From contig CAVRGP010000002.1 in NCBI GenBank assembly GCA_963720755.1, forward strand, positions 96,001 through 160,000: a stretch of 64,000 nt of DNA, given 5' to 3'. Below the pieces are notes generated by a model that saw only the letters and a list, made by a program, of their open reading frames with translations, was not told the origin of the DNA and ran no database searches. Shown one piece after another: positions 28,146 through 54,075 of the stretch. The translations under genes were made by a program, and so were the position numbers. Each line of letters begins with the position of its first letter. The stretch's first letter is position 1. Source of the DNA: an uncultured Chloroflexia bacterium (GTDB lineage Bacteria; Chloroflexota; Limnocylindria; Limnocylindrales; CSP1-4).

Positions 28146-28221
28146 GGGATGAGATGATAGGGAGAAGATACCCACCTACCAGCGGATCGCGACCCCGCGA
28201 ACGATGTGGAGTGAGCCCAAC

Positions 28222-29340: not shown

Positions 29341-29378
29341 CCCGCCTATCCGGAGGCCCGCCCCGGGTCCGCCCGTGG

Positions 29379-35418: not shown

Positions 35419-36872
35419 CACCCGAGGATCCGGCTCCACAGCACGCCCCAGGCATTGATCGCGATGGACACGACGATGAGGCTCATTCCCGCAAGCATGC
35501 CCCATCTGTACCGAAGGACCATCCGCTCGAACCCCAGCGCAACGAGGAGCAGCGCGAACGGTGCCGCATCGTTGCTGAAGCGGTAGCCGAACTGGACCCA
35601 TCCCTGACTGAAATGCATCAGGTCGACCAGGACGATGAGCCCCACGGCGATCACCGCGCCTGCCACCAGCCGCCGGCGCCGGAACGCGAACATCGCCGGG
35701 ATGGCCAGCAGGTAGGCCGGACTCGTCAGGAGGACGCTCATCCCGGTGGCGCGCGGGAGGGCGAGGGGGCAGGCGATGTCGAACAGGCCGCGACCGGCCG
35801 AGGGGTCGACGCAGACGGCGACGGGCGCGACCCCCAGGCTGTCCGGGAGCACGGTCGGGAGCAGGTCCGGTGTCCCGAACAGGGCGATCCCGAGGTTCTG
35901 GACGGCGTAGCGGACATCCTCGATCGCCCAATCGGCGTGGTAGCCGAGGGCGGGATAGCCGGCGACCTCGAGCCGGTAGAGGTAGTCGTACGCGGGATTG
36001 GTCAGGTGGCCGGTGCTGACGAGCGTGTAGGCGAGGAGGATCCCGATCGGGATGGCCGCCCCCAGACCGGCCGACCAGGCTCGCCGCCGCCACGCTCCGC
36101 CGGCCCCGACGAAGATGAAGAACGGCGCTCCGAAGACGACGGTGAGCCGTGCCGTGCAGGCCAGGCCGAACAGGAACCCGGCCACGAACTGGCGTCGGTC
36201 GACCCGAAGCCTCGGGCCTGGCCGCGATGCGGCCGTCCCGGCCTCGAGGCCCGTGACGGCGCCCGGGTCGTCGCGGACCGCCAGGCCGATCGCGAGGAAG
36301 GCCAACCCGACAGCGACGATATGGGCCTGATACCAGGTCGTCGCCTGTTGGGCGGTGTACCAGAAGACGGTCCCGAAGGCGAAGAAGACGGTCGTGCCCA
36401 GCCGGACCGCCGTCCCGACCGGGAGCCGGCCGATGGCCCACCAGCAGATCGCGATATCGAACGCTGCGATGACCGTGTAGATGGCCTGGGCGTTGGTGGC
36501 GAGGCCCCACATCGCGACGAACGGCAGCAGGAGGAGCGCCGGGAGGGGTGGGAACGGGAGCAGGCCCCGCGGGATGCCGTCCGAGGTGACGATCGGCAGG
36601 ACGTCCTGGAAGTCGACGTTGCCGAACACGCCGTCGCCGGCGACCGGGTATCGGATCGCGGCGTGGCCCTCGAGGAACGCAGCGGCTTGCCAGACGAAGT
36701 GGTCGTACTGGCGGGCCGAGTAGCTCAGACCGTAGACGGCCAGGGCCGCGAGCACGAGGAGCAGACCGACCACGATCGCCGCCGTTCGGGCGACGTCAGG
36801 GCCGATCGGGATCTCCGTATCGAGGTACGTTTCGGGGCCCGGCGGGCGACCCTGTGCTACGCTCCGATCCAC
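35415..36872 (-). CDS. Polytopic membrane protein, probable GT-C glycosyltransferase (start uncertain)
   Basis: Motifs HFVWQAAAFLEG, PFPPLPALLLLPF and GWVQFGYRFSND; many TMs. Confidence 0.65.
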   Translation of the reverse strand: MDRSVAQGRPPGPETYLDTEIPIGPDVARTAAIVVGLLLVLAALAVYGLSYSARQYDHFVWQAAAFLEGHAAIRYPVAGDGVFGNVDFQDVLPIVTSDGIPRGLLPFPPLPALLLLPFVAMWGLATNAQAIYTVIAAFDIAICWWAIGRLPVGTAVRLGTTVFFAFGTVFWYTAQQATTWYQAHIVAVGLAFLAIGLAVRDDPGAVTGLEAGTAASRPGPRLRVDRRQFVAGFLFGLACTARLTVVFGAPFFIFVGAGGAWRRRAWSAGLGAAIPIGILLAYTLVSTGHLTNPAYDYLYRLEVAGYPALGYHADWAIEDVRYAVQNLGIALFGTPDLLPTVLPDSLGVAPVAVCVDPSAGRGLFDIACPLALPRATGMSVLLTSPAYLLAIPAMFAFRRRRLVAGAVIAVGLIVLVDLMHFSQGWVQFGYRFSNDAAPFALLLVALGFERMVLRYRWGMLAGMSLIVVSIAINAWGVLWSRILGW

Positions 36873-36901
36873 CTTCCACGCTCGTGCAGGAGCCGTTCCC
36901 G

Positions 36902-39900
36902 GTGACTGGCCCCCAGACCCGCGGGACCGAGCGAGACACACGAGCGCCGTTGCCGGTTACCGGGACGCAGGGAGCCGTCGGCGCGGTCCTCGTGGTCCTC
37001 GCGCTCGGACTCGTCCTCCGACTCATCATCGCATACCTCCTTCCCGGGTCCGGATTCGAGGTCGATCTGGGGGCGTTCCGATACTGGGCGTCGAACCTAG
37101 CCTCGGAGGGACTCAACGGGTTCTATGCCCGCGACTTCTTCCACGACTACACGCCCGGCTACCTGTACGTGCTCTGGCTCGTCGGTATCGTCGGCAACGC
37201 GGCTGGGGGCGTCGGTGACCTGATCAAGCTTCCGCCCATCCTGTCCGACCTGGCGATCGGCTGGCTCGCCTGGTCGATGGTCCGGGAGCTTGGTGGGCGG
37301 GACCGCCTGGCCCTCGCCGCGGCCGCGGTGGCGGTGCTCAACCCGATCTCGTGGTTCGACAGCGTGGTGTGGGGTCAGGTCGACTCGTTCGGCGTCGTCT
37401 TCCTCCTGCTCGGGCTGCGCGAGCTGTGGCGCGACCGACCCGAGCGGGCCGCGATATTCACCGTGATCGCCGCGGTCATCAAGCCCCAGCTCGGGATCCT
37501 CATCCCGGTCGTGGCTGTCGTCACCATCAGGCGAGCGCTCTGGCCGGCCGGCGGCCACGGCGACCCGGCCCGGACCGGACGCCCGATCCGCATCCTGACG
37601 ACCGGCCTGGTCGGGTACATCACCGCCGTCGTGGTCTGTTTCCCGTTCGGCCTGTCGGTCATCGAGCTGAGCAGCCAGGCGCCCTATGTCTCGTCCGGGC
37701 TGCTCCAGCAGGTGGCGGTCGCCGCCGGCGGCTACCCGTACCTGACGGTCAATGCCTTCAACCCGTGGGCGCTGGTCCCGTCCGACCTGGGACAGAGCCT
37801 CGCCAACGCGGGCCTGTGGGTATGCGATTACGCGGGGACCGCCCAGGACTGCGGGGCCGGGACCGCGGTGTTCGGCCCGATCCCGGCGGTCGTCATCGGG
37901 ACGACCCTCCTGCTCGCCGCGATGGCCGTGATCCTCGCGGTCATCGCCAGGCGCCCGGACCGGCTGACGTTGCTCGTCGGGATGGCCGTCCTGGCGCTCG
38001 CCTTCTTCGTCGTCCCGACCCGCGTCCATGAGCGCTACGGCTACCCATTCTTCGCGATGGGCGTGATCCTGGCCGCGATCTCCCTGCGCTGGCGGATCGC
38101 CTACATCGTCCTGTCGGTGGCGACCTTCGCCAACATGTATGTCGTCCTGACCACGCTGTACCCCAACAATCCGTCGATCGCGGACTGGCTCGGGCTGGGC
38201 CCGGCGATCCGATCCGAGGCCGGCGTGGTTGCCGTGTCGGTGCTGCACGCGGTGGCGTTCGCGTGGGCGTTCGTCCAGCTGCGTTCGGACGCCCGAGCCC
38301 GGTTGGCGGAGGAACTGGTGGACGCCTCGACCGTCGACGTGCCGGAGCCAACGGACGACATCCCGGCCGGCCTGCCATCGCCGGAGGACCGGGCCCTTCG
38401 ACCGACGCCGGCGTCGAGCTCCCCGGTCGTCGTCGCCACGATGCCCACCTGGACGCCGCGCCCGAGCTTCGAGGAGGTCGGCATCCTCGGCTGGTTCAGG
38501 GCCCGTCTCGCCGACCCGCCGATCCGGCCCGACCGGAGCTCGACCCTGCGCTCGGAAGGCGGTGGACGGCTCGATCGACTCGATCTCTGGATGGTCGTCG
38601 TCCTCGTCATCGGCACGATGCTCCTGCGCACGTATCGGCTGGAACAGCCGTACCAGATGCATTTCGACGAGGTCTACCACGCCCGGACGGCCACCGAGTT
38701 CCTCCAGGATTGGCGGTACGGGCTGTCGCACGATATCTATGAGTGGACCCATCCGCATCTCGCCAAGTACCTGATGGCCGCGGGGATCGTCGCGTGGGGT
38801 GGGGACCATGTCGGCGCCACCAGCGAGCTGGGTGTCCCGGTCGTGGACGCGGTCGTCGAGCCCCGCCGGCTCGACCAACTCTCGCCGGGAGGTCGTGCCG
38901 GCGAACGGCTGTACGTCGCGACCGGCACCGAGGTGCGTGCCTACGACCTGCGCAGTCGGGAACTGGTGGCGGTCATCACCGCCCCGGGAGCGGTCAGCCT
39001 CGCCATCGACGAATCGGCTGATCTCCTCGTCATCGGCGGGTCGGACGGGCAGTTGAGCACGGTCAACCTCTTCGACATCGGCCAGTACAGGCTCGATAGC
39101 GACCTCAAGCCGATCGAGGTCGCCAACGTCGGTCACCCGATCGATCACCTCGTCGTCACTGACGATGGGTCGACCGTGGTCGCCGCGTCCGACGAACGGC
39201 TGACGGCCGTCGATCCGTTCGACGGGACGATCCACGGTTCGATGGATCTTCCTGGCATCGCCGACCTGTCGCCGGGTGGGACAGGATCGGCGATCGTCGC
39301 CAGCGTCGACGATGTCGGCGACCCGACCGCGGCCGCCTCGGCGCTGGCTGCCGTGATGGCGACCAACGGGTCGGCCGATGCCGAGGCGAGCCTCGCGGCC
39401 GACTACGAGACGCGTCTGGCGGGGGCAGCCTCCGGAACCACGGTCGTGCTCGGGGATCCGGGCAGCGGTGATGTGCGGACCGCCCTGGACGACGCGATCG
39501 CGGCCGGTTCGCTGCCGGGTATCTCGGTCGGGAGCGTGTCACGGATCGCCGCTGCGACGTCGGACGGCGTGGCCTTCATCGACCCCGCCCGCGTCTCCCT
39601 GGTCACGACCATCCTGCTCGACGGCGGTGCGCACGGGCTGGCGATGGTGACCGGCCTGGACGATCCGAAGATCTACGCGACGTATGGCGATGCCGCGGCC
39701 CCCGGCTACCAGGTCATCACCGTCGGAGGTGCTCAGGCGGATGCAGGACCGACCGCCGGCAGTTCGCACCCATTACCGGGGCTCGGCTCCCTCGTCACCT
39801 ACGACCCTGCCAGCCAGATGGTCCACATCCTGGGGCACGCCCCGGCCCCCGCCGGCGACGCCTGGACCGTGTACGTGGTCGAACCGCACGGCAACGCGGT

Positions 39901-42298
39901 CTTCGCCGATGCCCGGCTTCCTGATGGGTTCACGCCGTCGGCATGGGGTTCTGACTTCAACCCGGAGTACCCCTCGGAGGATCGGCAGCAGATCCTGGTC
40001 TTCGACCACGCTGGGGCGTCGGCCGCGATCGACGCGGGATCCCACGCCTTCGCCTGGCGGCTGCCCGGCGTCATCGCCGGGGCATTGACCGCCGCCCTGC
40101 TCTACCTCCTGACTCGGATCCTGTTCCGCCGCAGACTCGTGGCCGGCCTCGTGGCGCTCTTCGTCATCGCCGACGGCATGTTCTTCGTCCAATCCCGGAT
40201 CGGCATGAACGATGTCTACGTCGGGCTGTTCATCGTCGCCGCCTACACCCTGTTCGCGATGGTCTGGACAGGTTGGTGGCGAGGCCGCTCCGCGTTCTGG
40301 CTGGCCATGCCGGTCATCGGGGTCCTGCTCGGGCTGGCACTGGCCAGCAAGTGGGTCGCGGCCTATGCGATCGGCGCCCTCGTGCTGCTGATCCTCATCC
40401 GCAGCGCGCTCGGTCGGGTGCTCGCCATCCTCGGCATGATCGGGATCACGACGGTCCTGGGCTACATGGCCATCAGCGTCGCCGCCATCGAGGGCGGGCC
40501 GGACCCCGGGTTCGGGAACCTGACCTTCCTGCTGATCATGATCGCGCTGACTCTGCTGGCCGTCGTCGTGGCCGTCGTCCACCCGATCGCCTGGACCGAC
40601 GACGAGATGCGTTTCGCGGTCGGAGCGCCGGCCGTTCTGGGGGCATTGGTCTTCTTCGGGGCCGTCGGGACGGGTCGGATCGATTCGACGATCGCCATGG
40701 GGCCGCTGACCGTCACGCCGTTGCTCATCGCGATCGCCCTCGGGCTCGGATCGGTGGTGGTCGCCGTCCTGTTCTTCCTCGGTGGACGGATCGGGTTCGG
40801 TCCCCTGGCGTCTCCACCGGCCGACGACGACCCGATCCGGCTGCTCGACCCGCCCGGCACGCCCCCGGATGGCTGGCTCCGGCCCGGCTGGCTGTTGGGC
40901 CTGCCGGTCGTGTGGGTGGCGATCTGCATCCTCATCCTGCCGCTCGCCGTGTATGTCATCACCTACATCCCGTGGGCCCTCATCGAGAACCACCAGATCG
41001 TCCCTGGCTGGCCGCCCGGTCACACCGGCCAGACCCTCCTCGACCTGACGGGGCAGATGTACGGCTATCACAACGGCCTGACGGCGGCGCACCCCGCGTC
41101 CTCGCCCTGGTGGGCCTGGCCGATGAATCTGAAGCCGGTCTGGTTCTACCAGCAGAGTCTGGCGGCCGGAACGTCGGCCGCGCTGTACGACGCCGGCAGC
41201 CTGGTCATCTGGTGGATGAGCATCCCGGCGATGGCGTTCGTCGCCTACATGGCGTTCAAGCGGCGGAGTCTGGCCCTGACCCTCATCGCGATCGGGTTCG
41301 CCGCCCAGTGGATCCCATGGGCGCGGATCGATCGGGCCGCCTTCCAGTACCACTACTACACGTCGTTGCCGTTCCTGGTGATGGCCCTGGCCTACTTCGC
41401 CGCCGAGCTGTGGCACGGCGCCTCACGGCACACCTGGGCGCTGGCCCGGGCGGCCGGTGCCATCGCGATCGTCGCCCCGGCCGGCCTGTGGATCCTCGAC
41501 CGGCCCCTCTGTGCGATCGTCGGCGTCGACTCGGTCAACCCGGGCTCAGCCGCCTGCCCAGCCGTGATCCCGGACTTCGTTCTCACGGCCAGGACCGCCG
41601 GCCTGGCCCTGGTCGTCGGGATCGGTCTGATCATCATCATCCGGCGGTTCCTCGCGTTCGATCAGGCTGACGATGGCAGTGGCGACGGGGGCCAGCTCAC
41701 GGAGGCGTTCCGGTCACTCGTCTGGACCGGCCTGGCCGTCATCGCCGGATTGATCGTCGTGGCCTTCCTGCCCGACACCCCGATCCTGGTCCTGACCAGC
41801 GTCCCGGTGGAGCCGATCGCGCTGATCGTCGCGATCCCGCTCGGGTTCCTCGGCCTGCAGGTGTTCGCGTCAAGAGACGCACATCGGTTCGTGGTCGGTC
41901 TCGGCGTCGCGGTCGTTGCCTGGTTCGCCATCCTGTACCCGAACATCAGCGCCCTGCCGCTGCCCGCTGCCGTCGTCGCGGCGTACCAGGGCATCCTGCC
42001 GACCTATCTGTACGCCTTCCAGTTCCCGGTCAGCACGGTCACCCGGGCGACGGACACCCCCCTCCTGACGCCCATGCTCCTGGTCCTGCTGATCGCCCTG
42101 ACAGTGACCTGCCTGGTGGTCGCCTATTCCGCCTGGGTCTGGCGACTGACGCTGGCCGAAGCGAGAGCCGCGTCGGTGCCGCCGACGGATCCGACGCGTC
42201 CGCCGGCCCGGACGACCTGGCCCGGACCGGCAACGCCTGAGGGACGGCGGCCCGGAAGTCCGGCGGCAGCTGCCCGCCGGCCGCGAGACGGCGGATGA
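36902..42298 (+). CDS. Giant GT-C fusion: mannosyltransferase-like domain plus PMT-family protein O-mannosyltransferase with a large extracytoplasmic insert (true stop probably 42240)
   Basis: N-domain: DYTPGYLY, DSVVWGQVDS, KPQ, HERY. PMT motifs: FDEVYH, THPHLAK, FAWRLPG, SRIGMNDVY, SKW, HPASSPWWAWP, YHYY. Confidence 0.82.
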   Translation: MTGPQTRGTERDTRAPLPVTGTQGAVGAVLVVLALGLVLRLIIAYLLPGSGFEVDLGAFRYWASNLASEGLNGFYARDFFHDYTPGYLYVLWLVGIVGNAAGGVGDLIKLPPILSDLAIGWLAWSMVRELGGRDRLALAAAAVAVLNPISWFDSVVWGQVDSFGVVFLLLGLRELWRDRPERAAIFTVIAAVIKPQLGILIPVVAVVTIRRALWPAGGHGDPARTGRPIRILTTGLVGYITAVVVCFPFGLSVIELSSQAPYVSSGLLQQVAVAAGGYPYLTVNAFNPWALVPSDLGQSLANAGLWVCDYAGTAQDCGAGTAVFGPIPAVVIGTTLLLAAMAVILAVIARRPDRLTLLVGMAVLALAFFVVPTRVHERYGYPFFAMGVILAAISLRWRIAYIVLSVATFANMYVVLTTLYPNNPSIADWLGLGPAIRSEAGVVAVSVLHAVAFAWAFVQLRSDARARLAEELVDASTVDVPEPTDDIPAGLPSPEDRALRPTPASSSPVVVATMPTWTPRPSFEEVGILGWFRARLADPPIRPDRSSTLRSEGGGRLDRLDLWMVVVLVIGTMLLRTYRLEQPYQMHFDEVYHARTATEFLQDWRYGLSHDIYEWTHPHLAKYLMAAGIVAWGGDHVGATSELGVPVVDAVVEPRRLDQLSPGGRAGERLYVATGTEVRAYDLRSRELVAVITAPGAVSLAIDESADLLVIGGSDGQLSTVNLFDIGQYRLDSDLKPIEVANVGHPIDHLVVTDDGSTVVAASDERLTAVDPFDGTIHGSMDLPGIADLSPGGTGSAIVASVDDVGDPTAAASALAAVMATNGSADAEASLAADYETRLAGAASGTTVVLGDPGSGDVRTALDDAIAAGSLPGISVGSVSRIAAATSDGVAFIDPARVSLVTTILLDGGAHGLAMVTGLDDPKIYATYGDAAAPGYQVITVGGAQADAGPTAGSSHPLPGLGSLVTYDPASQMVHILGHAPAPAGDAWTVYVVEPHGNAVFADARLPDGFTPSAWGSDFNPEYPSEDRQQILVFDHAGASAAIDAGSHAFAWRLPGVIAGALTAALLYLLTRILFRRRLVAGLVALFVIADGMFFVQSRIGMNDVYVGLFIVAAYTLFAMVWTGWWRGRSAFWLAMPVIGVLLGLALASKWVAAYAIGALVLLILIRSALGRVLAILGMIGITTVLGYMAISVAAIEGGPDPGFGNLTFLLIMIALTLLAVVVAVVHPIAWTDDEMRFAVGAPAVLGALVFFGAVGTGRIDSTIAMGPLTVTPLLIAIALGLGSVVVAVLFFLGGRIGFGPLASPPADDDPIRLLDPPGTPPDGWLRPGWLLGLPVVWVAICILILPLAVYVITYIPWALIENHQIVPGWPPGHTGQTLLDLTGQMYGYHNGLTAAHPASSPWWAWPMNLKPVWFYQQSLAAGTSAALYDAGSLVIWWMSIPAMAFVAYMAFKRRSLALTLIAIGFAAQWIPWARIDRAAFQYHYYTSLPFLVMALAYFAAELWHGASRHTWALARAAGAIAIVAPAGLWILDRPLCAIVGVDSVNPGSAACPAVIPDFVLTARTAGLALVVGIGLIIIIRRFLAFDQADDGSGDGGQLTEAFRSLVWTGLAVIAGLIVVAFLPDTPILVLTSVPVEPIALIVAIPLGFLGLQVFASRDAHRFVVGLGVAVVAWFAILYPNISALPLPAAVVAAYQGILPTYLYAFQFPVSTVTRATDTPLLTPMLLVLLIALTVTCLVVAYSAWVWRLTLAEARAASVPPTDPTRPPARTTWPGPATPEGRRPGSPAAAARRPRDGG

Positions 42299-43392
42299 CG
42301 AAGCCGTAGTAGTCCTCCACCTTGGCCGTCACCCGCGGCCAGCTGAATTCCTCGGCCCGGACGCGTCCGGCGGCGCCCATCTGCGCCCGAAGGGCCGGGT
42401 CGTCGAGCAGGCGCCCGATCGCGCTGGCGAGCTCCTCGGGTTCCCGGGGCGGGACGAGCAGTCCCTCGCGGCCGCGTCGGACGACGCCCTTGTACCCGTG
42501 GATGTCCGAGGCGACGATCGGGGCGCCGGCGGCCATCGCCTCGAGCAGGACGATCCCGAACGACTCGCGACCCGTCGCCGGCGCGACGTACACGTCGGCG
42601 GTCCGGAAGAGCTGCGCCTTCTCGGCGTCGGTGACGCGTCCCAGGAACTCGACCGCCTGCAGACCGCGGGTCGCGACGTACCGGCGCGCCTCCCGCTCCT
42701 GCGGGCCGGAACCGACGACCAGGAGGCGATCGCGGTAATCCGGCCTTGCGGAGGATCCGATGTGCCTTCAGCAGGTCGAGCAGCCCTTTGCGTGGCTCGT
42801 GGCGACCGACGAACAGGACATTGGGCGTGCCGTCCTGCCAGCGGGCGACCGGCACCGCTCCCGCGAAGCGGGGGATATCGACGCCGTTGGGGATGACCTT
42901 GTAGTCGCCGGGGAAGAACCGGTCGATGAAGTGCCGCGCGGCGGCACTCACGGCGATGCGGCCGTGGAGCTTGGCCGCATGTCCCTTCATGACCCGGCTG
43001 CCCAGCTCGTAGGACGGAGAGAAGCCGGCATACGCGTGGAACGTGGCGATGTTGACACTCTTCGATTCGCGCAGCAGGAAGAGCGACAGGAAGGGGACGA
43101 ACGGTTCGTGGAGATGGAGGACATCGAAGCGTTCACGCGCGAGCAGCTCGCGGACCTGGCCGAGATACCGCGGTGAGAAGGTCAGCGTCCCGATCGAGCC
43201 ATTGAGCGGCACGCTGAAGCCCACGCCGATGCGCAGGATGTCACCCTCGGAGGCGCGTTGCGGGCCGTGGCTGGCAGTGATGATGCGGACGTCGTGGCCG
43301 GCCAGCCGGAGGTTCTCGTACAGGTGACGGACATGCTGGGCGACCCCGCCCGCCTCCGGGTAGATGTACGGACAGACCAGGCCGATCTTCAT
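42124..43392 (-). CDS. pimA: PimA-like GT4 phosphatidylinositol alpha-mannosyltransferase, with two compensating 1-bp frameshifts in this sequence
   Basis: N-terminus MKIGLVCPY..GGVAQHV, then LHLHEP, ATFH, GRIAVS, IPNGVD and EPRKG. The C-terminal ESFGIVLLEAMAAG motif lies in a shifted frame after about 42738. Confidence 0.78.
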   Translation of the reverse strand: MKIGLVCPYIYPEAGGVAQHVRHLYENLRLAGHDVRIITASHGPQRASEGDILRIGVGFSVPLNGSIGTLTFSPRYLGQVRELLARERFDVLHLHEPFVPFLSLFLLRESKSVNIATFHAYAGFSPSYELGSRVMKGHAAKLHGRIAVSAAARHFIDRFFPGDYKVIPNGVDIPRFAGAVPVARWQDGTPNVLFVGRHEPRKGLLDLLKAHRILRKAGLPRSPPGRRFRPAGAGGAPVRRDPRSAGGRVPGTRHRRREGAALPDRRRVRRAGDGSRVVRDRPARGDGRRRPDRRLGHPRVQGRRPTRPRGTARPAPGTRGARQRDRAPARRPGPSGADGRRRTRPGRGIQLAAGDGQGGGLLRLRHPPSRGRRAAAAGLPGRRPSGVAGPGQVVRAGGRVGSVGGTDAALASASVSRQTQAE

Positions 43393-44210
43393 CGACTCGG
43401 CCCATCCCCGGGACCGGGCGCCATGAACCGGGGAGGTCGCTGACGACCGCCCGGATAGCCATGATCGCGACCGGTCCCGTCGCGTCGGATCCGCCCGATG
43501 ACCTCGTCGCGGGCGTCGCGGCTGCGTTTCCGGAGCTGCTGTCCGAACGTGCCGAGCTGGCCGACCGTGGCGTGGAACGTGCCGCCATGCTCGGTCGTGC
43601 CGGCGAGGATCGCGCGCCGAAGGTCGTCGGCGTCCTGTCCGGCGAACGTCGTCCAGCCCGTCCCGATGGCCTCGAGTGCGTGGGCATCGCTGTTGCCGAG
43701 GTGGGCGAGACCGTGATCGTCGGCGAAGCGCACGACCCGACGATGGAGTGGCCGGCCGAGGCTGGTCGGGTTGAACGTCTCGAGTCCATCGGGGTGGGCG
43801 CCCGGGTCAGGATCATCGAGGAGCCGACGAAGGGTCCAGGCCTGTGCGCACAGCGGATATGGGACGAGCGGGTGCGCCGGGATCGCCAGCCCGCCGGCAT
43901 CGTGCACGGCGAGGATCGTCGTCCGCATCGATCGGTACGGGCGGATCGGGCGGTCCAGGAAGAGCCCCAGCAGATGACCGCCAAGGGTCGTGATCTCCTC
44001 GCCGACCACGACGTCGACCCGGAGTCCACGGTCCCGGGCCATCGACCGAGCCGCGACGGCGGCATCGATCCGCTCATGGTCGGCGATCGCGATGACGTCG
44101 AGGTCGGTCTGCCCCTCGACGTGCTCGAGGATCTCCTGGATCCCGGCCGTGCCGTCGCTGGCGAGCGTATGGATGTGGAGGTCGGCCCGACCGAGGCGAT
44201 CGATGGTCAT
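43389..44210 (-). CDS. PHP-domain phosphoesterase
   Basis: Motifs DLHIHTLASDG, IADHE, GEEI, GHLL, AHP and NSDAH; start and stop overlap neighbours on both sides. Confidence 0.88.
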   Translation of the reverse strand: MTIDRLGRADLHIHTLASDGTAGIQEILEHVEGQTDLDVIAIADHERIDAAVAARSMARDRGLRVDVVVGEEITTLGGHLLGLFLDRPIRPYRSMRTTILAVHDAGGLAIPAHPLVPYPLCAQAWTLRRLLDDPDPGAHPDGLETFNPTSLGRPLHRRVVRFADDHGLAHLGNSDAHALEAIGTGWTTFAGQDADDLRRAILAGTTEHGGTFHATVGQLGTFGQQLRKRSRDARDEVIGRIRRDGTGRDHGYPGGRQRPPRFMAPGPGDGPSR

Positions 44211-45160
44211 GCCGCGACCCCTGCGTCGGCGAGGCCCGGGTCGGATCCAGCCTCGAGATCCGGCCAGATCGGGAAGAAGATGGCCCACCATTGGTCGGGC
44301 GCGTCGGCGATGAGGTCCTCGAACGCGGCCGCGAGATTGAGCATCGTCGCCATCACCCGCTCACGGCGAGTCCCGGACGTCGGCACGTCGATCGGGAGGA
44401 TCCGACCCCGGTAGGAGCCGGACCCGGCCCGTCGAACGGCCATCCCGTAGACCGGCACCCCCGCTTCGACCGCCAGGATGGCCGGACCCATCGGCAGCAT
44501 GGCCGGGGACCCGAAGAGCGCGATCGGCGTCCCGCCGCCGGTCAGGTCCCGGTCGCCGACGAGACCCACCGGGATGCCCTCGCGCAGGGCGTCGATGAGT
44601 GCCCGTCGAGCTTCCCGCAGACTGACGAGGCGGACCCCGTGCACGCCTCGGGTCCGTTCGAAGTACGCCTGGACCCCGGGATCGTCCACGGTCTCCATCG
44701 GGATCACCGTCGAGCCAACGCGAAGCGCGAAGTAGACGACCGGCAGTTCAAGCGACCCGAAGTGAAGACCGACGAACAGGACGGCCTGGCCCGGCTTGAC
44801 CGCCTCCTCGATGAGCTCAGGCGTATCCAGCTGCAGGCGTTCGTCCACGTATTCCCGCGTGATCGCCGGCGTCCGGGCGACCTCGAGGTAGTAGCGGGCA
44901 GCGTGGCGGAAGGACGATCTGACGAGCCGCTCGAGTGCCTTGGGGTCGGTCGCCGCCGCCCGGACCCGAGCACTTCCGCGACCGGAACCCGCCAGCGACC
45001 GACAGACGCGCCGAAGGTTCCGTCGTGCCTGGTCGGCGCGGCGCGGTGCCAGCCGGTACCAGACGTCACCGGCCAGATCGGCGACGCGCATCAGCGGTCG
45101 TTCGGGCAGCCGGCAGGCGAGCCACGACATGGCCAGCAGGAGGCGGCCCCGGACGGTCAC
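44207..45160 (-). CDS. PatA-like (lipid A/PIM) acyltransferase, copy 2
   Basis: Motifs ARYYLE, LHFGSLE (HX4E), LVGDRDL and PDQW. Confidence 0.82.
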   Translation of the reverse strand: MTVRGRLLLAMSWLACRLPERPLMRVADLAGDVWYRLAPRRADQARRNLRRVCRSLAGSGRGSARVRAAATDPKALERLVRSSFRHAARYYLEVARTPAITREYVDERLQLDTPELIEEAVKPGQAVLFVGLHFGSLELPVVYFALRVGSTVIPMETVDDPGVQAYFERTRGVHGVRLVSLREARRALIDALREGIPVGLVGDRDLTGGGTPIALFGSPAMLPMGPAILAVEAGVPVYGMAVRRAGSGSYRGRILPIDVPTSGTRRERVMATMLNLAAAFEDLIADAPDQWWAIFFPIWPDLEAGSDPGLADAGVAA

Positions 45161-46242
45161 CCGGGTGTCGCCTCGGTCGATCCGTCGACCCCCGTGGGTG
45201 CCGTGGAGGCGGTCGCAGACGCGTCGCCGGGTGTCCGGCCCGGTCCCGGGTCGGGTACGCCCGACTGCATCATCCTGGCGCGGACTTCGAGTTCCGCCGC
45301 TTCGCCGGGGTCGTCCGGCCACATCGGCTTGAAGCTGTACCACTGATATGGGGCGACCCGGATCGCATCGGCCAGTGCATCGGCCATCGCCTGGCTGGCG
45401 CGCTGCAGCTCGGCCGGGTCGCTCGACGGCACGTCGATCGGATCGCGGAACTCGAGGGCGAACGTGCCGTCAGCCTTGCGGTGGATAGCGACCGGCAGGA
45501 TCCGCGACCCCGTCTTGGCCGCGAGTGTCGCCGGTCCAGCCGGCAGCGTCGTCCAGGCATCGAACAGGCGCACCGGGATGCCATCGCTGCGATAGCCCCA
45601 GTCGATCAGCAGACCGAGCATCTCGCGGCGTCGGAGCACCCCGAAGATCGCCCGAAGGTTGCGCCATGGAACGAGGTCGAAACCCCACGCCGCGCGTTGC
45701 CGGCGGAGCAGCTCGAACAGCTCCGGGAATGACGAGTCATCGGCCACGACACTGACCTTCAGGCCGAGTCGCGCGACCGCCGCCGCGATCGCTTCGTTGC
45801 TGCCGATATGAGCGGCCGTGAAGATGAGCCCGCCGGTATTCGATCCATCGCGGATCCGTCGCAGGTCGTCCTCCAGCCGGTCGAGGTCACCGGCCAGCCG
45901 CCCGACCTCGTCCGGCGTCAGCGATGGCAGGCGCATCAGTTCGACGAGGTACCGGCCGTATTCGCGATAGGCATGAAGCGCGAGCGCACGCACCCGACGA
46001 TCGTCGGGCGAGATCCCCAGGACGTGCCCGAAATTGTCGTTCGACCACCGTCGTCGTGCCGGCCAGGCGAGGTACGACCCCTGTGCCAGGAGCCCGACGA
46101 CGACGGCTGCGGGCCCGGCCGGCAGGACGCGCAGGAGCCACGCCGTCGCCCGATAGGCAACGACGGCCGTCCGTTCGACGATCCTCGGCCGAGCCCCGCC
46201 TCGGCGGTGTGGCGCCTCGAGCCGTTTGTCGGCGCTGGTCAC
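45157..46242 (-). CDS. PatA-like (lipid A/PIM) acyltransferase, copy 1
   Basis: Motifs [28 protein letters not shown] and [11 protein letters not shown]. Confidence 0.82.
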
Positions 46243-47477
46243 TTCGCGGCGGTGGCCACCTTGGCCTTGGTGCCGGCCATCCGCTTGACGGTCTTCTTGA
46301 CCGGCGCTTCCGTGCCGACCAGGGTTTCGTTGTCATCGCCGCGGATGAACGCCTCGACCCGGTTGAACGCGATGTCGTCGTGGATCTGGTGCGGCGGGCT
46401 CTTCATGAAGTAGCTGGACGGCGCGACCAGCGTGCCGGTCAGACCGCGATCGAGTCCGAGCTTGAGGCAGCGGATCGCGTCGGTGATGACGCCGGCGCTG
46501 TTGGGGCTGTCCCAGACCTCGAGCTTGAGTTCCGCGTTGAGCGGCACGTCGCCATAGGTCGTGCCTTCCATCCGGATGTAGCACCACTTCCGATCGAGCA
46601 GCCACGGCACGTGGTCGCTCGGGCCGACGTGGACATCGTCGGGATCCATCTCGTAGTCGAGCATGGACGTGACCGCGTTCGTCTTGCTGATCTTCTTGGA
46701 CTCGAGTCGTTCCCGCTCGAGCATGTTGAGGAAGTCCGTGTTGCCACCGAAGTTGAGCTGGTACGTCCGATCGAGCCGGACGCCACGGTCCATGAACAGG
46801 CGGGTCAGCACGCGATGGCTGATCGTCGCGCCGACCTGGCTCTTGATATCGTCGCCGATGACCGGCAGCCCGGCCGCTGCGAATCGGCGCTGCCAGTAGG
46901 GCTCGCGGCCGATGAACACCGGGATGGCGTTGACGAAGGCGACGCCCGCCTCGAGGGCCTGCTCGACGTACCACTTGGTGGCCTGCTCGCTCCCGACCGG
47001 GAGGTAGCTGACCATGACGTCGACCTGGCGCTCCTTGAGGATGCCGACGATGTCGGCCGTGGGGCCGGGCGCCTTCTCGATGACCTGGCTGAGGTACTTG
47101 CCGAGGCCGTCGTGGGTCATCCCGCGCTCGACCGGCACGCCCATGGGCTGGACCTGCTGGAAGACGTACGTGTTGTTCGGCTTCGTGTAGATCGCCTCGG
47201 ACAGGTCCTTGCCGACCTTGTTCTTGTCGATGTCGAATGCCGCGACGAACTCGATGTCCTTGACGTGGTAGCCGCCGAGGTCGACGTGCATCAGCCCGGG
47301 GACGAAGTCGTCCTTCTTGGCGTTCTCGTAGTAGTAGCGGCCCTGGACCAGGCTGCTGGCGCAGTTGCCGACCCCGACGATGGCGACCCGGATCTTGCCG
47401 TCGCCGCGCCGGCCCGCGCCGGCCCAGGTGTTGGTCGGCTTGGCGCCGTCCTTGCCGTTCTTGCCGTTGGTGCTCAC
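46239..47477 (-). CDS. ino1: myo-Inositol-1-phosphate synthase (actinobacterial/archaeal type)
   Basis: Motifs [48 protein letters not shown] and WDSPNSAG. Confidence 0.96.
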
Positions 47478-47492
47478 GATGGTCCGTTCTCC

Positions 47493-48185
47493 TTACTTGG
47501 ACGGGATGTGGGAGGCCGACTTGGCCTGGCTGCGGACGTGGAGGATCCGCTGGATGACGGTGATGATGGAACCGATGGTGATGATGCCCAGGGCGAGGAA
47601 CAGGGCATCCACGCCGAGCGGGGTGGCGAGACCGCCAGCACCTGCCCCATCGGGGATATCCCAGCTGGCGCCGAGGATCCCGGCGAGGACGAGGCCGAGA
47701 CTGAGGATGATCAGGCGCACTTCCCGTGGCATGACGCCGACGGCCGCCATCCCGGTCCCGGCCGTGAAGCCGAGCCCGTCGGACTTGGCCCGTGTATAGC
47801 TGACCATGACGGCCGATCCCATGGCCGCAGCGGCCCATAGCGTGCCGTCGGCGACGCCGACCGCCTGCAGTCCGGCGACGATCCCGATGTAGACGACCAC
47901 TTCACCGGCCCGATCGAACACGCTGTCCATGAACGCGCCGAGGTTGCTGACCTTGCCGGTCGCCCGGGCCAGCGTGCCATCGAACATGTCGAAGACGCCG
48001 CCGAGGAACACGACGAGGCCGCCGAGGAGCCAGAGCTGCGCGGCGACGAGGACCGCACCGACGACCGTGATCCCGAAGCCGATGAGCGTCAGCCCGTCCG
48101 GCGTCAGGCCGAGGCGGCCCATCCCGAGCGCGATCGGCTCGAAGACCTTCTTGATCCGGCCACGGGACTCGTTGGAGATCGTCAT
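47493..48185 (-). CDS. pgsA: CDP-alcohol phosphatidyltransferase, probable phosphatidylinositol-phosphate synthase
   Basis: Motif DMFDGTLAR...GAFMDSVFDR, plus MVSYTRAK; adjacent to ino1. Confidence 0.85.
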   Translation of the reverse strand: MTISNESRGRIKKVFEPIALGMGRLGLTPDGLTLIGFGITVVGAVLVAAQLWLLGGLVVFLGGVFDMFDGTLARATGKVSNLGAFMDSVFDRAGEVVVYIGIVAGLQAVGVADGTLWAAAAMGSAVMVSYTRAKSDGLGFTAGTGMAAVGVMPREVRLIILSLGLVLAGILGASWDIPDGAGAGGLATPLGVDALFLALGIITIGSIITVIQRILHVRSQAKSASHIPSK

Positions 48186-48197
48186 CCTGTCGGGCGC

Positions 48198-48533
48198 CTA
48201 GCTCGCGAAGCCGAGGACGGCGCGCTCGCGCGCGGCGAACTCCACGAACGCCTCTTCCCGGAGGCGACAGACGGTCTCACGACCCTTGCGACGGGTCTCG
48301 ACGACGCCCGCGGCGCGCAGGCGGCCGAGGTGCCACGAGACGAGTGGCTGGCTGAGTCCGACGTGGGCGATGAGTTCCGCGACGGTGGCATCGCTCTCTG
48401 CGAGGCGGCGGACGATCCGCAGCCGGTTCACGTCGGCCATGACCTTATGGAAGGCGCGCAGCTGGCGGAGGTCTTCGGGCTGGGCGACGGCCGCGGCGAT
48501 CGTGCTGCGGACTCGGACGGGCGAGGGGGACAC
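48198..48533 (-). CDS. ArsR/SmtB-family transcriptional regulator
   Basis: Pattern ADVNRLRIVRRL...TVAEL...LSQPLVSWHLGRLRAAGVV; GTG start after GGAG (ATG at 48590 is the alternative). Confidence 0.9.
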   Translation of the reverse strand: MSPSPVRVRSTIAAAVAQPEDLRQLRAFHKVMADVNRLRIVRRLAESDATVAELIAHVGLSQPLVSWHLGRLRAAGVVETRRKGRETVCRLREEAFVEFAARERAVLGFAS

Positions 48534-48586
48534 GGTGACGGCTCCGGATCGGTGACGAGTCGAGATCGAGGTGGGGGATCGCGGTC

Positions 48587-48648
48587 GCATCAACCACGAT
48601 TTATATCAATCGCCGTTGATGCTAGGACGTCGGCCTGTCCGGTGTCAA
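48587..48648 (-). promoter_or_regulatory. Promoter and ArsR-type operator of the inositol-lipid operon
   Basis: Minus strand TTGACA-N18-TAGCAT, overlapped by the inverted repeat GCATCAAC...GTTGATGC containing ATCAA-N6-TTGAT and ATAAA-N6-TTGAT. Confidence 0.75.
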
Positions 48649-48667
48649 GGGGTTCGCAGCGCGAGTG

Positions 48668-49195
48668 CTATAGCGCGGCAGCCGCGTCCTGTGGGTCAGT
48701 CGCGCGGGTGGACATCGCCAGCGCGATGGCGGCCGCCGCAAGCCAGGTGACAAACATGATGACGCCGCCTCCGACCACGAAGAGGATGACTCCAGCAATC
48801 GTCCCAGCCGGCACGAGAGCGAGAAGGCGGTAAAGACCACGACCCGTCCAGGCGATCAGGAGGCTCAGGATGACCAGTGCAACCAAGTTGATCATCTCGC
48901 CGAGGATGAAGACGAAGAAGACCCACTCGATACGCAGTCCGTCCTCGAAGACGTTGGCGACGCTCGAAAGAGCGACACCAGAACCTGCGACGAGCGACAG
49001 TCGGGTCACCCAGCGCCCGCCCACCATTCGGCCGAACACAGGGAGTGCGACCGCGAGCGTTAGCAACGCTCCGCTGAATCCGAGCACATGCGGCCATTCG
49101 CCCTGACTCGCAGTCGCCTCGAACGAGGGGTTCGCCACGACCCAATAGGCGAGGAAGGCGAACCCCGTGAGGGCAAAGAGCGCAGCACGTGCCAT
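48668..49195 (-). CDS. Hypothetical membrane protein (about 6 TM)
   Basis: Hydrophobic ORF starting MARAALFALTG; visibly more A/T-rich than its neighbours. Confidence 0.65.
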   Translation of the reverse strand: MARAALFALTGFAFLAYWVVANPSFEATASQGEWPHVLGFSGALLTLAVALPVFGRMVGGRWVTRLSLVAGSGVALSSVANVFEDGLRIEWVFFVFILGEMINLVALVILSLLIAWTGRGLYRLLALVPAGTIAGVILFVVGGGVIMFVTWLAAAAIALAMSTRATDPQDAAAAL

Positions 49196-49300
49196 AAGCA
49201 CGGAGTATGGGATGACGCCCGCCGGGATGTGCGACGTCCAGGACATGAAGCGGTCTGGGTCGCCCCCGGGCGCTTCGTCGACGACCACTACACTCCGTGG

Positions 49301-50974: not shown

Positions 50975-52013
50975 CGACGGGTCGACCATCCCCATCACCG
51001 TCGAGCTCAAGCGAGCCGGTGCCCTGTCGAGGCGTGACGTCCCGGGGACCGTCAGGGTCACGGTCATCGACGGCGACGCGGTCCGGGAGGCGGAGGACCC
51101 GACTGCCCTGGCCGGGGTCGCCGACGAGCGCGCCAGGCCCGGGGCCGCCATCTGGATCGACCTGACGGCGCCATCCGCAGCGCAGGCCAGGGAGGTCGGC
51201 AAGGTCCTTGCGCTCCACCCACTCATCATCGAGGACGTGCTCGAGGGCAATCAGCGCGCCAAGATCGAATCGACGGACGGCGTCCTCCATATCGTCCTGT
51301 TCCACCTGGCCTACGGCGATGCGGTGATCGCCTCGGAGCTCGACATCGTGCTCGGGCCCGGCTACCTTCTGACGGTCCACGACTCGGACTGGGATCCGCG
51401 CTCCGGCCACCACCTGGCGGCCGGCGTGGAACCGGTGCTCCGGCACGGTCCCGACCACCTGCTGTGGGCCATCGCCGACGACCTCGTCGACGGCTATTTC
51501 CCGTTCGCCGACCTGATCGGCGATGCCATCGACGACGTCCAGGACGAGGTCGTCCGGCGAGCGACGCCGGACACCCTGGAGCGCCTGTTCAAGCTCAAGC
51601 GCGAGCTCATCGGCGTCCGCCGGGCGATCAGCCCGGTCCGCGAGGTCTTCAACCAGCTGACCAACCGTGACGAGCAATTCATCGACCCGGACGAGCTGGT
51701 CTACTTCCGCGACATCTACGATCACGTCATCCGGCTGACCGACGAACTCGACAACTACCGCGAGCTGGCATCGGCGACTCTGGACGTCTATCTCACCCAG
51801 GTCAACAACAACCTGTCGGTCATCATGAAGCGGCTGACCGGCGTCACCGTCATCCTCGCCGGGATCGCGGCCATCGCGGGGGTCTTCGGGATGAGCGAGG
51901 CCGGCGCGGCTGTCGGCGGTCACGAGGCTGGTGGGTTCTGGATGGTCACTGCGGCCGTGTTCGGACTCGCGGCGCTGGCTGCCGTCATCCTGCGGCGGAT
52001 CGACTGGATCTGA
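50937..52013 (+). CDS. corA: CorA-family Mg2+/Co2+ transporter
   Basis: Motifs LHPLIIED, YFRDIYDH, MKRLT and GVFGMS (a GMN variant). Confidence 0.88.
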   Translation: MASTRPNPASRSDDGSTIPITVELKRAGALSRRDVPGTVRVTVIDGDAVREAEDPTALAGVADERARPGAAIWIDLTAPSAAQAREVGKVLALHPLIIEDVLEGNQRAKIESTDGVLHIVLFHLAYGDAVIASELDIVLGPGYLLTVHDSDWDPRSGHHLAAGVEPVLRHGPDHLLWAIADDLVDGYFPFADLIGDAIDDVQDEVVRRATPDTLERLFKLKRELIGVRRAISPVREVFNQLTNRDEQFIDPDELVYFRDIYDHVIRLTDELDNYRELASATLDVYLTQVNNNLSVIMKRLTGVTVILAGIAAIAGVFGMSEAGAAVGGHEAGGFWMVTAAVFGLAALAAVILRRIDWI

Positions 52014-52881
52014 CCTCGCGCTCGAGCGCCGATGCCAGGGCGGACAGGGCTCGCGCGGCCTGGTGCGGGGTCGTGAACACGACGTCTGACATCGTTCGGA
52101 CCTCGTCGGGCATGCCGTGGGGCCCGATGACGCCGGCCGCCAGCCCCTGGATCGTGCCGGCGGCCCGGGCGTCGCGCAGGACCGCGAACCCGTCCGCATC
52201 GCTGAGATCGTCGCCGAAGGCGACGACTGCGGCCGGCGCACGCTCCTGCAGGAGTTCCTCGAACGCCTCGCGCTTGCCACCCGCCGTCCGCGGTCGGAGA
52301 TCCACGACCAGTCTGCCGCGATAGTGGGCCAGGTCGTGGGCGGGCAGGTCGCCGTCGACCGTCTCGATCGCGGCCTCGACGGCCGCCCGGGCCGCCGTCC
52401 GGTCTTCGGCCTGCCTGACGTGGAACGCCACCGAGGGGCCCTTGCGCTCGACGTACAGCCAGCGTGGTCGACCGAGCAGTGCCGGTACTCGATCGGCGAG
52501 GAGCTCGGCCGGCTCGATCGAGGCATCGTGGCCCGCGTGGAACGTCGTCGAGAGTCGGGCCGGGTCGCCGCCGCGAGGGAACGTCCCGCGCTGCAGCCCG
52601 TGATCCCCGAGATAGGTCACGCCTCCCACCCGGATCCTCATGGCCGCGTCGGCGGCCGTCCGGCCGGTCAGGACCACCACCGACAGCCGCCCCGGTCGTG
52701 CCACTGCGAGCCCGGCGAGACGCCGCAGCGAACGTTGGGCGAGCGGGACGATGACCGCGGCGCCCGGGTCTCGCGAACCCTCGGCCAGCGTGCCGTCGAA
52801 ATCGGCGATCACGAGGAGCGGCCCGGAGACCTCGGCCAGCCCGGCGACGGCCAGGATCGCGGCCCGATCCGTCCCGTTCAA
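51985..52881 (-). CDS. otsB: Trehalose-6-phosphate phosphatase (HAD family)
   Basis: Motifs ADFDGTLA, LTGR, GDHGL, ERKGPSVAFHVR and FGDDLSD; TTGA overlap with the upstream gene. Confidence 0.82.
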   Translation of the reverse strand: MNGTDRAAILAVAGLAEVSGPLLVIADFDGTLAEGSRDPGAAVIVPLAQRSLRRLAGLAVARPGRLSVVVLTGRTAADAAMRIRVGGVTYLGDHGLQRGTFPRGGDPARLSTTFHAGHDASIEPAELLADRVPALLGRPRWLYVERKGPSVAFHVRQAEDRTAARAAVEAAIETVDGDLPAHDLAHYRGRLVVDLRPRTAGGKREAFEELLQERAPAAVVAFGDDLSDADGFAVLRDARAAGTIQGLAAGVIGPHGMPDEVRTMSDVVFTTPHQAARALSALASALEREVRSSRSAAG

Positions 52882-53291
52882 GGGGTGACGTCGACTCCCG
52901 GCAGGATCGTCTTGCCGCCGACCTGGGTCACGGCGAGGGCCGATGCCGGTAGACCGACCTGGAGCGAGGTGGCCTCGACGGTGGCGCTGGGCCTGGCGGT
53001 GGCGCTGGGGCTGGCGCTGGGGCTGGGACTCGCGGTCGGGCCGGCCGTGGCGCCGGGGCTGGGGCTCGGGCTTGCGGTGGCGCTGGCCGTAGCGCCGGGG
53101 CTCGCCGTGGCGGCAGGGCTCGGCGCGAGCGATGCCGACGCCGACGGCGTCGCGGACGCGAGCGGCAGGGTCGGGGCGACGACCTGCGGCACCAGCGACT
53201 CGGGGGTGAGGCTGTAGATCCCGCCGAGCACCAGTCCGGCGACCGCGATCCCGACCACGAGGCCGGCGACGATCGAAAGGCGGGCCAACAT
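52878..53291 (-). CDS. Membrane-anchored Ser/Thr/Pro/Ala-rich protein
   Basis: N-terminal TM followed by ASPSPSPGATA-type low-complexity repeats. Confidence 0.65.
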   Translation of the reverse strand: MLARLSIVAGLVVGIAVAGLVLGGIYSLTPESLVPQVVAPTLPLASATPSASASLAPSPAATASPGATASATASPSPSPGATAGPTASPSPSASPSATARPSATVEATSLQVGLPASALAVTQVGGKTILPGVDVTP

Positions 53292-53361
53292 CTCGGGCGG
53301 AGGGTACCAGTACCAGCGGGCAAGGGCGATTTCGACGGCCCGCTGCTAGGATGCCGGTCCA

Positions 53362-54075
53362 ATGGGTCAACTCGCGGACTCGATCCGCATCCGGGTCATC
53401 CCGGCCGTCATCATCGCCCTCGGCGTGACGTTCCTCGCGGCGGGGATGCTGTCGTTCGCGACCCCGGTGACCGCCGACCCCTCCGCAACGCCGGTCGAGA
53501 CGGCCGTTGCCGTGGCCGATCCGACGCCGAGTCCGCTCATCACCCTGCCGCCGATCGGGTCCGGAGCGCCCACGACGGCAGCACCCTCCATCCCGGCCGA
53601 CCGCGTGGCCACCCGTGTCCGAGTCGCCGCCCTCGAGATCGACCTGCCGGTGATCGCCCCGACCGGCGGCTATCCGTACTGCAACGTGGCCCAGTACTTC
53701 GATGACAGCCGCCTCGGTCAGCCTGGAGAGGGCAAGGCCGTCTACCTCTACGGGCATGCCCGGACCGGGATGTTCCTGCCCCTCCTCGACGCGTCGAAGG
53801 TGGCGAGCGGCAAGAAGATGATCGGGATGGTCGTCGAGGTGTGGACCAGTGACGACCAGCGGTTCCTGTACGTCATCACCCAGGTTCGTCGCCACGTGCC
53901 GTATGACGAGGTGTTCACGAAGCCGTTCGCGGCCGACCACGAGCAGCTCTGGCTCCAGACGTCCGAAGGGGTCGGCACGCAGCCGAAGCTCCAGGTCGTG
54001 GCCGAGCCCCTGTCGCATGAGGCGGCACCGCACCGGGAGGCGAACCCCGTGCCCAGGCCGGTGACCTGCGGCTGA
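53362..54075 (+). CDS. Sortase-fold protein with Ser at the catalytic Cys position
   Basis: N-terminal TM, Pro/Thr linker, then RVRVAALEIDLPVI, YLYGHA and LWLQTS. Confidence 0.7.
   Translation: MGQLADSIRIRVIPAVIIALGVTFLAAGMLSFATPVTADPSATPVETAVAVADPTPSPLITLPPIGSGAPTTAAPSIPADRVATRVRVAALEIDLPVIAPTGGYPYCNVAQYFDDSRLGQPGEGKAVYLYGHARTGMFLPLLDASKVASGKKMIGMVVEVWTSDDQRFLYVITQVRRHVPYDEVFTKPFAADHEQLWLQTSEGVGTQPKLQVVAEPLSHEAAPHREANPVPRPVTCG

Follow-up and report, generated by a model that had tools for sequence, protein, structure and literature searches.

Inositol lipid systems of other bacteria and the Chloroflexota gene cluster

In mycobacteria and corynebacteria, the early genes of the phosphatidylinositol mannoside (PIM) pathway are arranged as pgsA1-patA-pimA, the mycobacterial genes having neighbours of the HIT and Nudix families, and PIM-type inositol glycolipids count as a hallmark of the Actinomycetota. 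Here we describe a cluster of seven genes found in a 64,000-nucleotide (nt) stretch of DNA, called the window below, from an uncultured soil bacterium of the phylum Chloroflexota (contig CAVRGP010000002.1, positions 96,001 to 160,000). Its predicted products are an ArsR/SmtB regulator, a CDP-alcohol phosphatidyltransferase resembling phosphatidylinositol phosphate (PIP) synthases (PIPS), the myo-inositol-3-phosphate synthase Ino1, two PatA-like acyltransferases (AT1 and AT2), a metal phosphoesterase of the PHP family and a PimA-like glycosyltransferase of family GT4. Judged from these products, the cluster is probably an ArsR-controlled operon for an acylated phosphatidylinositol (PI)-based glycolipid resembling the early PIMs of mycobacteria, native to Chloroflexota.

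The cluster shares with the actinobacterial pathway the PIP synthase, the PatA-type and the PimA-type enzymes, which each have their actinobacterial counterpart as best solved-structure match. It differs in belonging to another phylum and in its gene order, with the PIPS gene first among the enzyme genes or, in other classes, after the GT4 gene. It also includes ino1, has two acyltransferase genes instead of one, and adds the PHP and ArsR genes; the initial annotation of this DNA had claimed components beyond the pgsA1-patA-pimA core, and all of them are there. HIT and Nudix neighbours are absent from the Chloroflexota cluster.

A second relative is the Bacteroides thetaiotaomicron cluster BT_1522-BT_1526, which groups myo-inositol phosphate synthase (MIPS), PIP synthase and a PIP phosphatase and makes PI via PIP, as described in the preprint 10.1101/2021.04.26.441525. 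MIPS and PIP synthase genes also stand together in the Chloroflexota cluster, where the PHP protein is the candidate for the phosphatase. The Bacteroides system differs in that its phosphatase, BT_1525, belongs to the PgpA family, its products are inositol sphingolipids and it has neither PimA nor PatA. According to the same preprint, BT_1525 was the first PIP phosphatase to become known in bacteria, and bacterial inositol lipids were thought to be largely limited to Actinobacteria and Spirochaetes. PI is reported as a major polar lipid of one cultured species of Chloroflexota, together with glycolipids and phospholipids that were left unidentified (PMC12453558), so inositol lipids are not new in this phylum. 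A literature search, with most subscription journals and supplements outside its coverage, yielded nothing linking Chloroflexota with PIM genes or PHP proteins with PIP dephosphorylation. A 'pimA' match in PMC13200403 was an author name and an 'inositol' match in 10.1101/2021.08.23.457424 an unrelated gene label.

Gene layout and host

The initial annotation had listed seven co-oriented genes at 42124-48648, those from ino1 to the GT4 gene being linked by overlapping stop and start codons. All seven are found where it placed them, on the minus strand between 42124 and 48593, and four 4-nt overlaps are read directly in the DNA: GTGA at the ino1/AT1 and AT1/AT2 junctions and ATGA at the AT2/PHP and PHP/GT4 junctions. 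Its genes, order and overlaps are thus real, but the GT4 gene is not intact as assembled (see below). The longest open reading frames (ORFs) of AT2 and PHP begin further upstream, at 45343 and 44291; the starts lying in the overlaps, 45160 (GTG) for AT2 and 44210 for PHP, fit the pattern. The genes from ino1 to GT4 are tightly translationally coupled. Gaps separate the genes upstream, one of 13 nt containing GGAG between the PIPS gene and ino1 and one of 9 nt between arsR and the PIPS gene.

The window belongs to a 3.01-Mb assembly of 15 contigs that is 93.6% complete. That its host is a member of the Chloroflexota had been guessed from the letters of the DNA and agrees with the best 80 PHP-related loci in public genomes, 77 of which carry titles of this lineage (Chloroflexota, Chloroflexi, Chloroflexia, Anaerolineaceae, Limnocylindria/-ales), the remaining three being labelled otherwise. 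Many of these titles read 'Candidatus Limnocylindrales' or 'Limnocylindria', and by these matches the host class is Limnocylindria. The GC content is 0.65-0.73 in the window and 0.67-0.70 in the cluster, which is no different from its flanks.

Distribution across Chloroflexota

Gene order was compared in 17 order-level loci, of which 10 belong to the genus and 7 to a sister family whose genomes measure ~1.1 Mb, and in 20 phylum-level loci drawn from 19 families. The seven genes have an identical order in all 17 order-level loci. The PHP gene immediately precedes the PimA-like gene in each of these and in 18 of the 20 phylum loci, which hold two acyltransferase genes in 15 cases, ino1 in 13, arsR in 10 and a PIPS gene in 16. 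Within the class Limnocylindria the PIPS gene precedes ino1, and in other classes it follows the GT4 gene. The phylum-level exceptions are locus L154, with the PHP gene alone, L155, with the PHP gene and only a weak C-terminal half of GT4, L153, which has only the PHP and GT4 genes, and L152, a short contig without acyltransferase genes.

Presence of the genes was counted in a single even draw of 401 Chloroflexota genomes, that of the window (G000) included, with thresholds of E <= 1e-25 for PHP-type, E <= 1e-12 for PIPS-like and E <= 1e-50 for PimA-like proteins. PHP-type proteins occur in 282 genomes, PIPS-like in 382 and PimA-like in 288. The draw holds six unpublished genomes (G078, G184, G212, G266, G309 and G380), and their removal leaves 277, 376 and 282 of 395, respectively. 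Each of the four families sampled from the class has the cluster. By these sequence comparisons, the operon is a phylum-level trait, native to Chloroflexota and without recent import. The initial annotation had proposed a survey of synteny; the layout proves to be phylum-wide, no peculiarity of one organism.

Actinobacteria supply all of the closest characterised enzymes, as would be expected if the cluster had recently been acquired from Actinomycetota by horizontal transfer. This scenario is highly improbable in view of the spread of the cluster over the four class families and of PimA-like genes over 288 of the 401 phylum genomes, of a gene order unlike pgsA1-patA-pimA, of a GC content equal to that of the flanks and of an identity to PimA that is merely moderate. 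An ancient transfer, in either direction, may have taken place.

The GT4 protein is PimA-like

The GT4 gene (42124-43392) codes for the product that most directly relates the cluster to PIM synthesis. Compared with all solved structures, its N-terminal half matches PimA as the sole hit (2.5e-35) and its C-terminal half gives PimA as the best hit (1.9e-24), ahead of PimB'. The intact orthologue L013:6873-8123, 416 amino acids long, aligns with PimA (4n9w/2gej) at 213 bits, residues 1-363 to 5-365, clearly above the next matches, PimB' with 85 bits over the C-terminal half only and MshA-type enzymes with ~75 bits. The protein has two Rossmann-type domains, and GGESFGIVLVEAMAAG of PimA has its aligned counterpart in a C-terminal segment that reads GRESFGIVLLEAMAAG in the window and GGESFGIVLLEAMAAG in the L013 orthologue; we take this segment to be the C-terminal Glu...Glu motif. 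A homologue search gives 84-92% identity among the best 120 matches, and orthologues are already named 'phosphatidylinositol alpha-mannosyltransferase' by JGI automatic annotation. The best reading of these similarities is that GT4 is a predicted PimA-like mannosyltransferase. The relationship to PimA implied by the initial annotation is supported by the bit-score separation of 213 versus 85; the annotation had missed that the gene is frame-broken in this sequence.

The donor sugar and the acceptor are less directly accessible, as neither substrate can be read from sequence. GT4 might move a sugar other than mannose or use an acceptor other than PI, leading to another inositol glycolipid or to an inositol-phosphate glycoside. 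The identity to PimA is moderate, as the 213 bits indicate, and the D-inositol-3-phosphate glycosyltransferase 7qsg matches the C-terminal half of the protein (6.2e-14 for the window, 2.5e-15 for the intact orthologue). However, the N-terminal domain, which binds the acceptor, matches PimA alone among solved chains, and the neighbouring genes code for a PIP synthase and two PatA-like enzymes and include no mycothiol genes. We regard such a change of donor or acceptor as improbable and retain the assignment as a PimA-like mannosyltransferase.

The frame break in the GT4 gene

Pfam detects only the N-terminal domain in the 422-amino-acid GT4 ORF (PF13439, residues 15-173), in the frame of the ATG at 43392. 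The C-terminal domain (...ESFGIVLLEAMAAGAPIVASD...) sits in another frame that is open from stop to stop over 42039-42767, and the last codons and the stop codon are back in the first frame. A search of the genome of the window likewise matches the PimA-like gene in two pieces, so that no uninterrupted GT4 reading frame is found there, the two domains being split over two frames. In a DNA alignment the window has one additional base at ~42738-42742 compared with 12 of 12 relatives. A variable tail at ~42178-42198 differs in length as well (+8 versus L030, +17 versus L013, +2 versus L014). The total length difference is a multiple of three, and hence the end of the gene regains its first frame, leaving ~185 codons of the C-terminal domain out of frame as assembled.

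A single soil-metagenome study has four runs whose short-read contigs include near-identical DNA. In each run, one contig omits the base at 42742, and for this reason the break is most likely an error of the assembly consensus. A contig with a single mismatch over 42000-42492 also omits eight bases at 42178-42184, and removal of both length differences restores a single GT4 frame colinear with that of the relatives. Much of 42094-42500 is left uncovered by the contigs of runs X2-X4, and we conclude nothing from these holes. Conserved genes are also split in sister assemblies made of few contigs, namely ino1 of L030 (L030:4756-5993), found in three pieces of 97-99% identity, and the PIPS gene of L021 (L021:1994-2650), found in two pieces; these cases point to indel errors in assemblies of this kind.

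If the ~185 displaced codons were instead the mark of a true pseudogene in this strain, the operon would stop at PI or at an otherwise acylated PI. What lends some weight to this possibility, and weighs against the soil contigs as witnesses, is that those lacking the base at 42742 are 96-98% identical to the window there, carry 7-12 other differences and may be sister strains. Yet the out-of-frame domain has kept 84-92% protein identity to its relatives and contains no stop codon, and both halves of the gene share one frame in 36 of 36 relatives (17/17 order-level loci, 18/18 phylum-level loci having both halves, and L030). In the same gene, the near-identical contig contradicts the assembly at 42178-42184, and other conserved genes are also broken in the sister assemblies. 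A pseudogene seems quite unlikely on this evidence.

Acyltransferases, PIP synthase and Ino1

AT1 (45157-46242) and AT2 (44207-45160) belong to the LpxL-type fold family PF03279, and PatA is the sole solved-structure match of both, with E values of 2.2e-14 and 2.1e-13, respectively. The His of the AT1 motif AAHIGSNE aligns with the His of PHSGNWD in PatA; in AT2, the counterparts of this PatA His and of the PatA Glu are the His of GLHFGSLE and the Asp of VGDRDL. An Asp occupies the position of the PatA Glu in both proteins. We take the aligned His and acidic residue to correspond to the catalytic pair of PatA.

The CDP-alcohol phosphatidyltransferase (47493-48185; PF01066) has as best solved relatives the Renibacterium PIPS 5d92 (5.5e-16) and PgsA1 6h53 (3.5e-14). 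Its sequence contains D65xxDGxxAR...G82xxxD86xxxD90 (D65-D68-G69-A72-R73 followed by G82-D86-D90), which corresponds to the PIP-synthase motif Dx2DGx2AR...Gx3Dx3D as quoted in 10.1101/2021.04.26.441525. Ino1 (46239-47477) matches PF01658 with 120 bits, above the cut-off of 27, and is 68-97% identical to its relatives.

Family-specific NCBIfam equivalog models give more reserved results, which count against too close an equation of these proteins with their characterised counterparts. The best NCBIfam family of AT1 and AT2 is the PatA equivalog NF005919 'PIM acyltransferase', reached with 123.5 and 123.3 bits for a cut-off of 209. The best families of the CDP-alcohol transferase are NF040950 (archaetidylinositol phosphate (AIP) synthase; 126.2 bits, cut-off 180) and NF045883 (PIP synthase; 110.5 bits, cut-off 170), and Ino1 scores 528.7 bits with TIGR03450, below the cut-off of 638. 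Since all four cut-offs are missed, AT1, AT2, the CDP-alcohol transferase and Ino1 are, as far as such profiles can tell, family relatives and not certified equivalents.

The PHP protein, a candidate PIP phosphatase

The PHP gene (43389-44210) codes for a protein matching PF13263 with 50.7 bits for a cut-off of 21.3. In 29 sequences from across the phylum, the metal ligands H14, D19, H45, E72, H79, H113, D175 and H177 are invariant and H12 is nearly so. The AlphaFold2 model (pLDDT 85.2, pTM 0.83) has the PHP fold and ends in a basic helix, residues 215-237, and a disordered tail; the basic character of the C-terminal helix and tail is conserved. Foldseek matches the model to PHP phosphoesterases with probability 1.00 and E values of 3.5e-11 to 1.4e-4, at TM scores of 0.4-0.6 and identities of 14-27%. 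The matches comprise the uncharacterised proteins BVU_3505 and TM0559 as well as RNase AM, BAD_1165, Cv1693 and a histidinol-phosphate phosphatase. The protein thus shares fold and metal ligands with PHP phosphoesterases such as histidinol-phosphate phosphatase, the 3',5'-bisphosphate nucleotidase Cv1693 and RNase AM, and differs from them in its low identity, in its basic C-terminal helix and tail and in its fixed place in a lipid operon. A PHP member acting on a lipid headgroup was not found in our literature search. The nearest atlas clusters are made of unnamed Chloroflexota proteins.

Position by itself makes the PHP protein a candidate PIP phosphatase, with roughly even chances, because the conversion of PIP to PI has no other gene in the operon and the PHP gene is coupled on both sides. 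No match to the PgpA family, to which BT_1525 belongs, was found for it in Pfam or NCBIfam; if the protein does fill this role, it would be a non-homologous replacement for BT_1525. To our knowledge, the enzyme for further acylation of PIM is still unassigned in mycobacteria. A wider proposal, which we put forward as tentative and somewhat less likely to be right than wrong, is that the PHP protein represents a new class of PIP phosphatases, unrelated to the PgpA type and serving most Chloroflexota, and that AT2 carries out a further acylation of PI-mannoside.

Several observations speak against a dedicated role of the PHP protein in this pathway. Foldseek names no substrate for it, the best matches being RNase AM and PHP proteins that are themselves uncharacterised. 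There is hardly any PHP-type match beside the PimA-like and PIPS-like genes in family f20 (PHP-type 1/9, PimA-like 9/9, PIPS-like 9/9) and none in family f26 (0/7, 6/7 and 6/7, in the same order). The reverse is seen in families f10 (PHP-type 18/24, PimA-like 0/24, PIPS-like 24/24) and f14 (17/25, 0/25 and 22/25, the latter weak). Of the 19 genomes lacking a PIPS-like match, 10 nonetheless have PHP-type proteins, and in the two loci L154 and L155, of genomes G270 and G332, the PHP gene stands without PIM genes; the PHP matches there and in f10 and f14 are strong (E ~1e-38 to 1e-56). Phyletic co-occurrence, which we had considered as a test of the PHP role, is non-discriminating, since PIPS-like genes are found almost throughout the phylum.

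These data leave room for an operon that makes PI and a glycosylated, acylated PI with a PIP phosphatase encoded elsewhere, the PHP protein having another role such as trimming of a nucleotide or sugar-phosphate by-product, or an activity like that of RNase AM. In favour of such a role, the best characterised Foldseek matches are RNase AM (7ug9, 9etk) and the nucleotide phosphatase 2yb1, PHP is missing beside PimA-like and PIPS-like genes in eight of the nine f20 genomes and in f26, it persists in f10 and f14, where PimA-like genes are lacking, and alone in L154, and the genome codes for a second PHP paralogue of 34% identity (G000:C2:56483-57013, outside the window). We nevertheless hold it to be unlikely: the gene is tied by ATGA overlaps on both sides between an acyltransferase and the PimA-like gene, it keeps this position in 17/17 order-level and 18/20 phylum loci, the latter from 19 families, and no other gene of the operon can supply the phosphatase step. 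A second paralogue similar to that of the window's genome is found in most of 40 relatives searched.

Proposed pathway

With the PHP protein retained as candidate phosphatase, the operon could act as follows. Ino1 would convert glucose-6-phosphate to inositol-3-phosphate, which the CDP-alcohol transferase would join to CDP-diacylglycerol (CDP-DAG) to give PIP, and the PHP phosphoesterase may then dephosphorylate PIP to PI. The PimA-like GT4 would transfer to the inositol of PI a hexose, which is probably mannose with GDP-mannose as its donor, and the two PatA-like acyltransferases would attach one or two further acyl chains, with a division of labour between them. We infer each of these chemical steps, as well as the donor sugar, from the relationships of the enzymes.

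The initial annotation had seen in the cluster a complete, self-contained operon for acylated PI-mannosides. The interpretation as such is supported by PimA, PatA and PIPS being the closest solved relatives, but the word 'complete' overstates it. The core enzymes are present, but genes for the supply of GDP-mannose or of CDP-DAG are absent from the operon and the PIP step would fall to the unproven PHP protein. It also weighs against a full PIM pathway that the seven-gene operon holds no PimB-type second mannosyltransferase, although no search aimed at one was made.

If the proposal is correct, acylated PI-glycosides would be a trait of a second large phylum, one that abounds in soil and water and is for the most part uncultured. 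The operon would also provide a genetic basis for PI and for the 'unidentified glycolipids' of cultured Chloroflexota reported in PMC12453558. It offers a concrete candidate for the PIP to PI phosphatase and a second acyltransferase, both of which can be put to the test. The contribution of this particular window is modest: it holds a typical member of the group, in which one gene probably contains an assembly error, along with a clear promoter and operator.

Promoter, operator and ArsR regulator

The first gene of the operon, arsR (48198-48593), codes for an ArsR/SmtB protein matching NF033788 with 74.6 bits for a cut-off of 55, and PF01022 with an E value of 1.4e-12. Its start is uncertain between the TTG at 48593 and the in-frame ATG at 48590. 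The gene heads the cluster in 17/17 order-level loci and is present in half of the phylum loci (10/20). Just upstream, on the same strand, lies a promoter-like site, TTGACA-18 nt-TAGCAT (48619..48648), that matches at 10 of 12 positions; no other sigma-70-like site was found in 41500-49200. Two adjacent palindromes of the type ATCAAC-N4-RTTGAT (48589..48620, minus strand) overlap the -10 hexamer of this site and the start of arsR.

Both hexamers are conserved in 12 of 12 sequences, those of the window and of 11 genus relatives, in an alignment where the spacer and the upstream DNA vary. The tandem palindromes are conserved in the same alignment, the row of L021 ending within the second of them. 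When up to one mismatch is allowed, the palindrome pattern has three matches in the window, all at 48589-48620, versus 0.10 expected, and a search of the 3.01-Mb genome for the exact pattern gives one match, that at the arsR promoter. Because the promoter is conserved and the palindromes overlapping it are unique in the genome, the arrangement fits a dedicated, autoregulated ArsR-type repressor that would bind this putative operator and repress the operon. Autoregulated ArsR/SmtB operons likewise have the gene of the winged-helix repressor first and palindromes overlapping its own promoter; the present operon differs in carrying lipid genes, not metal resistance.

A hydrophobic ORF of ~75 codons (48671-48895, minus strand) stops 20 nt short of the arsR promoter's -35 hexamer. 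A listed ORF of 378 amino acids that covers this short one has no family match and overlaps a gene for a major facilitator superfamily (MFS) transporter on the opposite strand.

Neighbouring genes

An ORF of 1814 amino acids (36854-42298, plus strand) is convergent with the GT4 gene, whose 3' end it overlaps. Its product looks like several membrane glycosyltransferase modules fused into one protein, with PMT and PMT_4TMC domains in its C-terminal part and a sub-threshold GT87 match in its N-terminal part (E 0.0045). We considered this giant glycosyltransferase as a part of the system and rejected it, its gene being adjacent to the cluster in 10/10 genus loci, 0/7 sister family loci and at most 1 of the 20 phylum loci. 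In L015 it is split into several frames (L015:2483-4810). Just upstream of the giant ORF, an 868-amino-acid protein of the GT-C type is encoded on the minus strand (33904-36510), with TMEM260-like (5.9e-23) and PMT_2 matches. On the other side of the cluster, an ORF of 682 amino acids (51985-54033, minus strand) has a trehalose-phosphatase domain, PF02358 (1.1e-17), in its C-terminal third, its N-terminal 400 residues matching no family. A dnaN gene with three beta-clamp domains is followed by a gene for a RecF-like ATPase (28204-30530, plus strand), and the replication origin may be close to the window.

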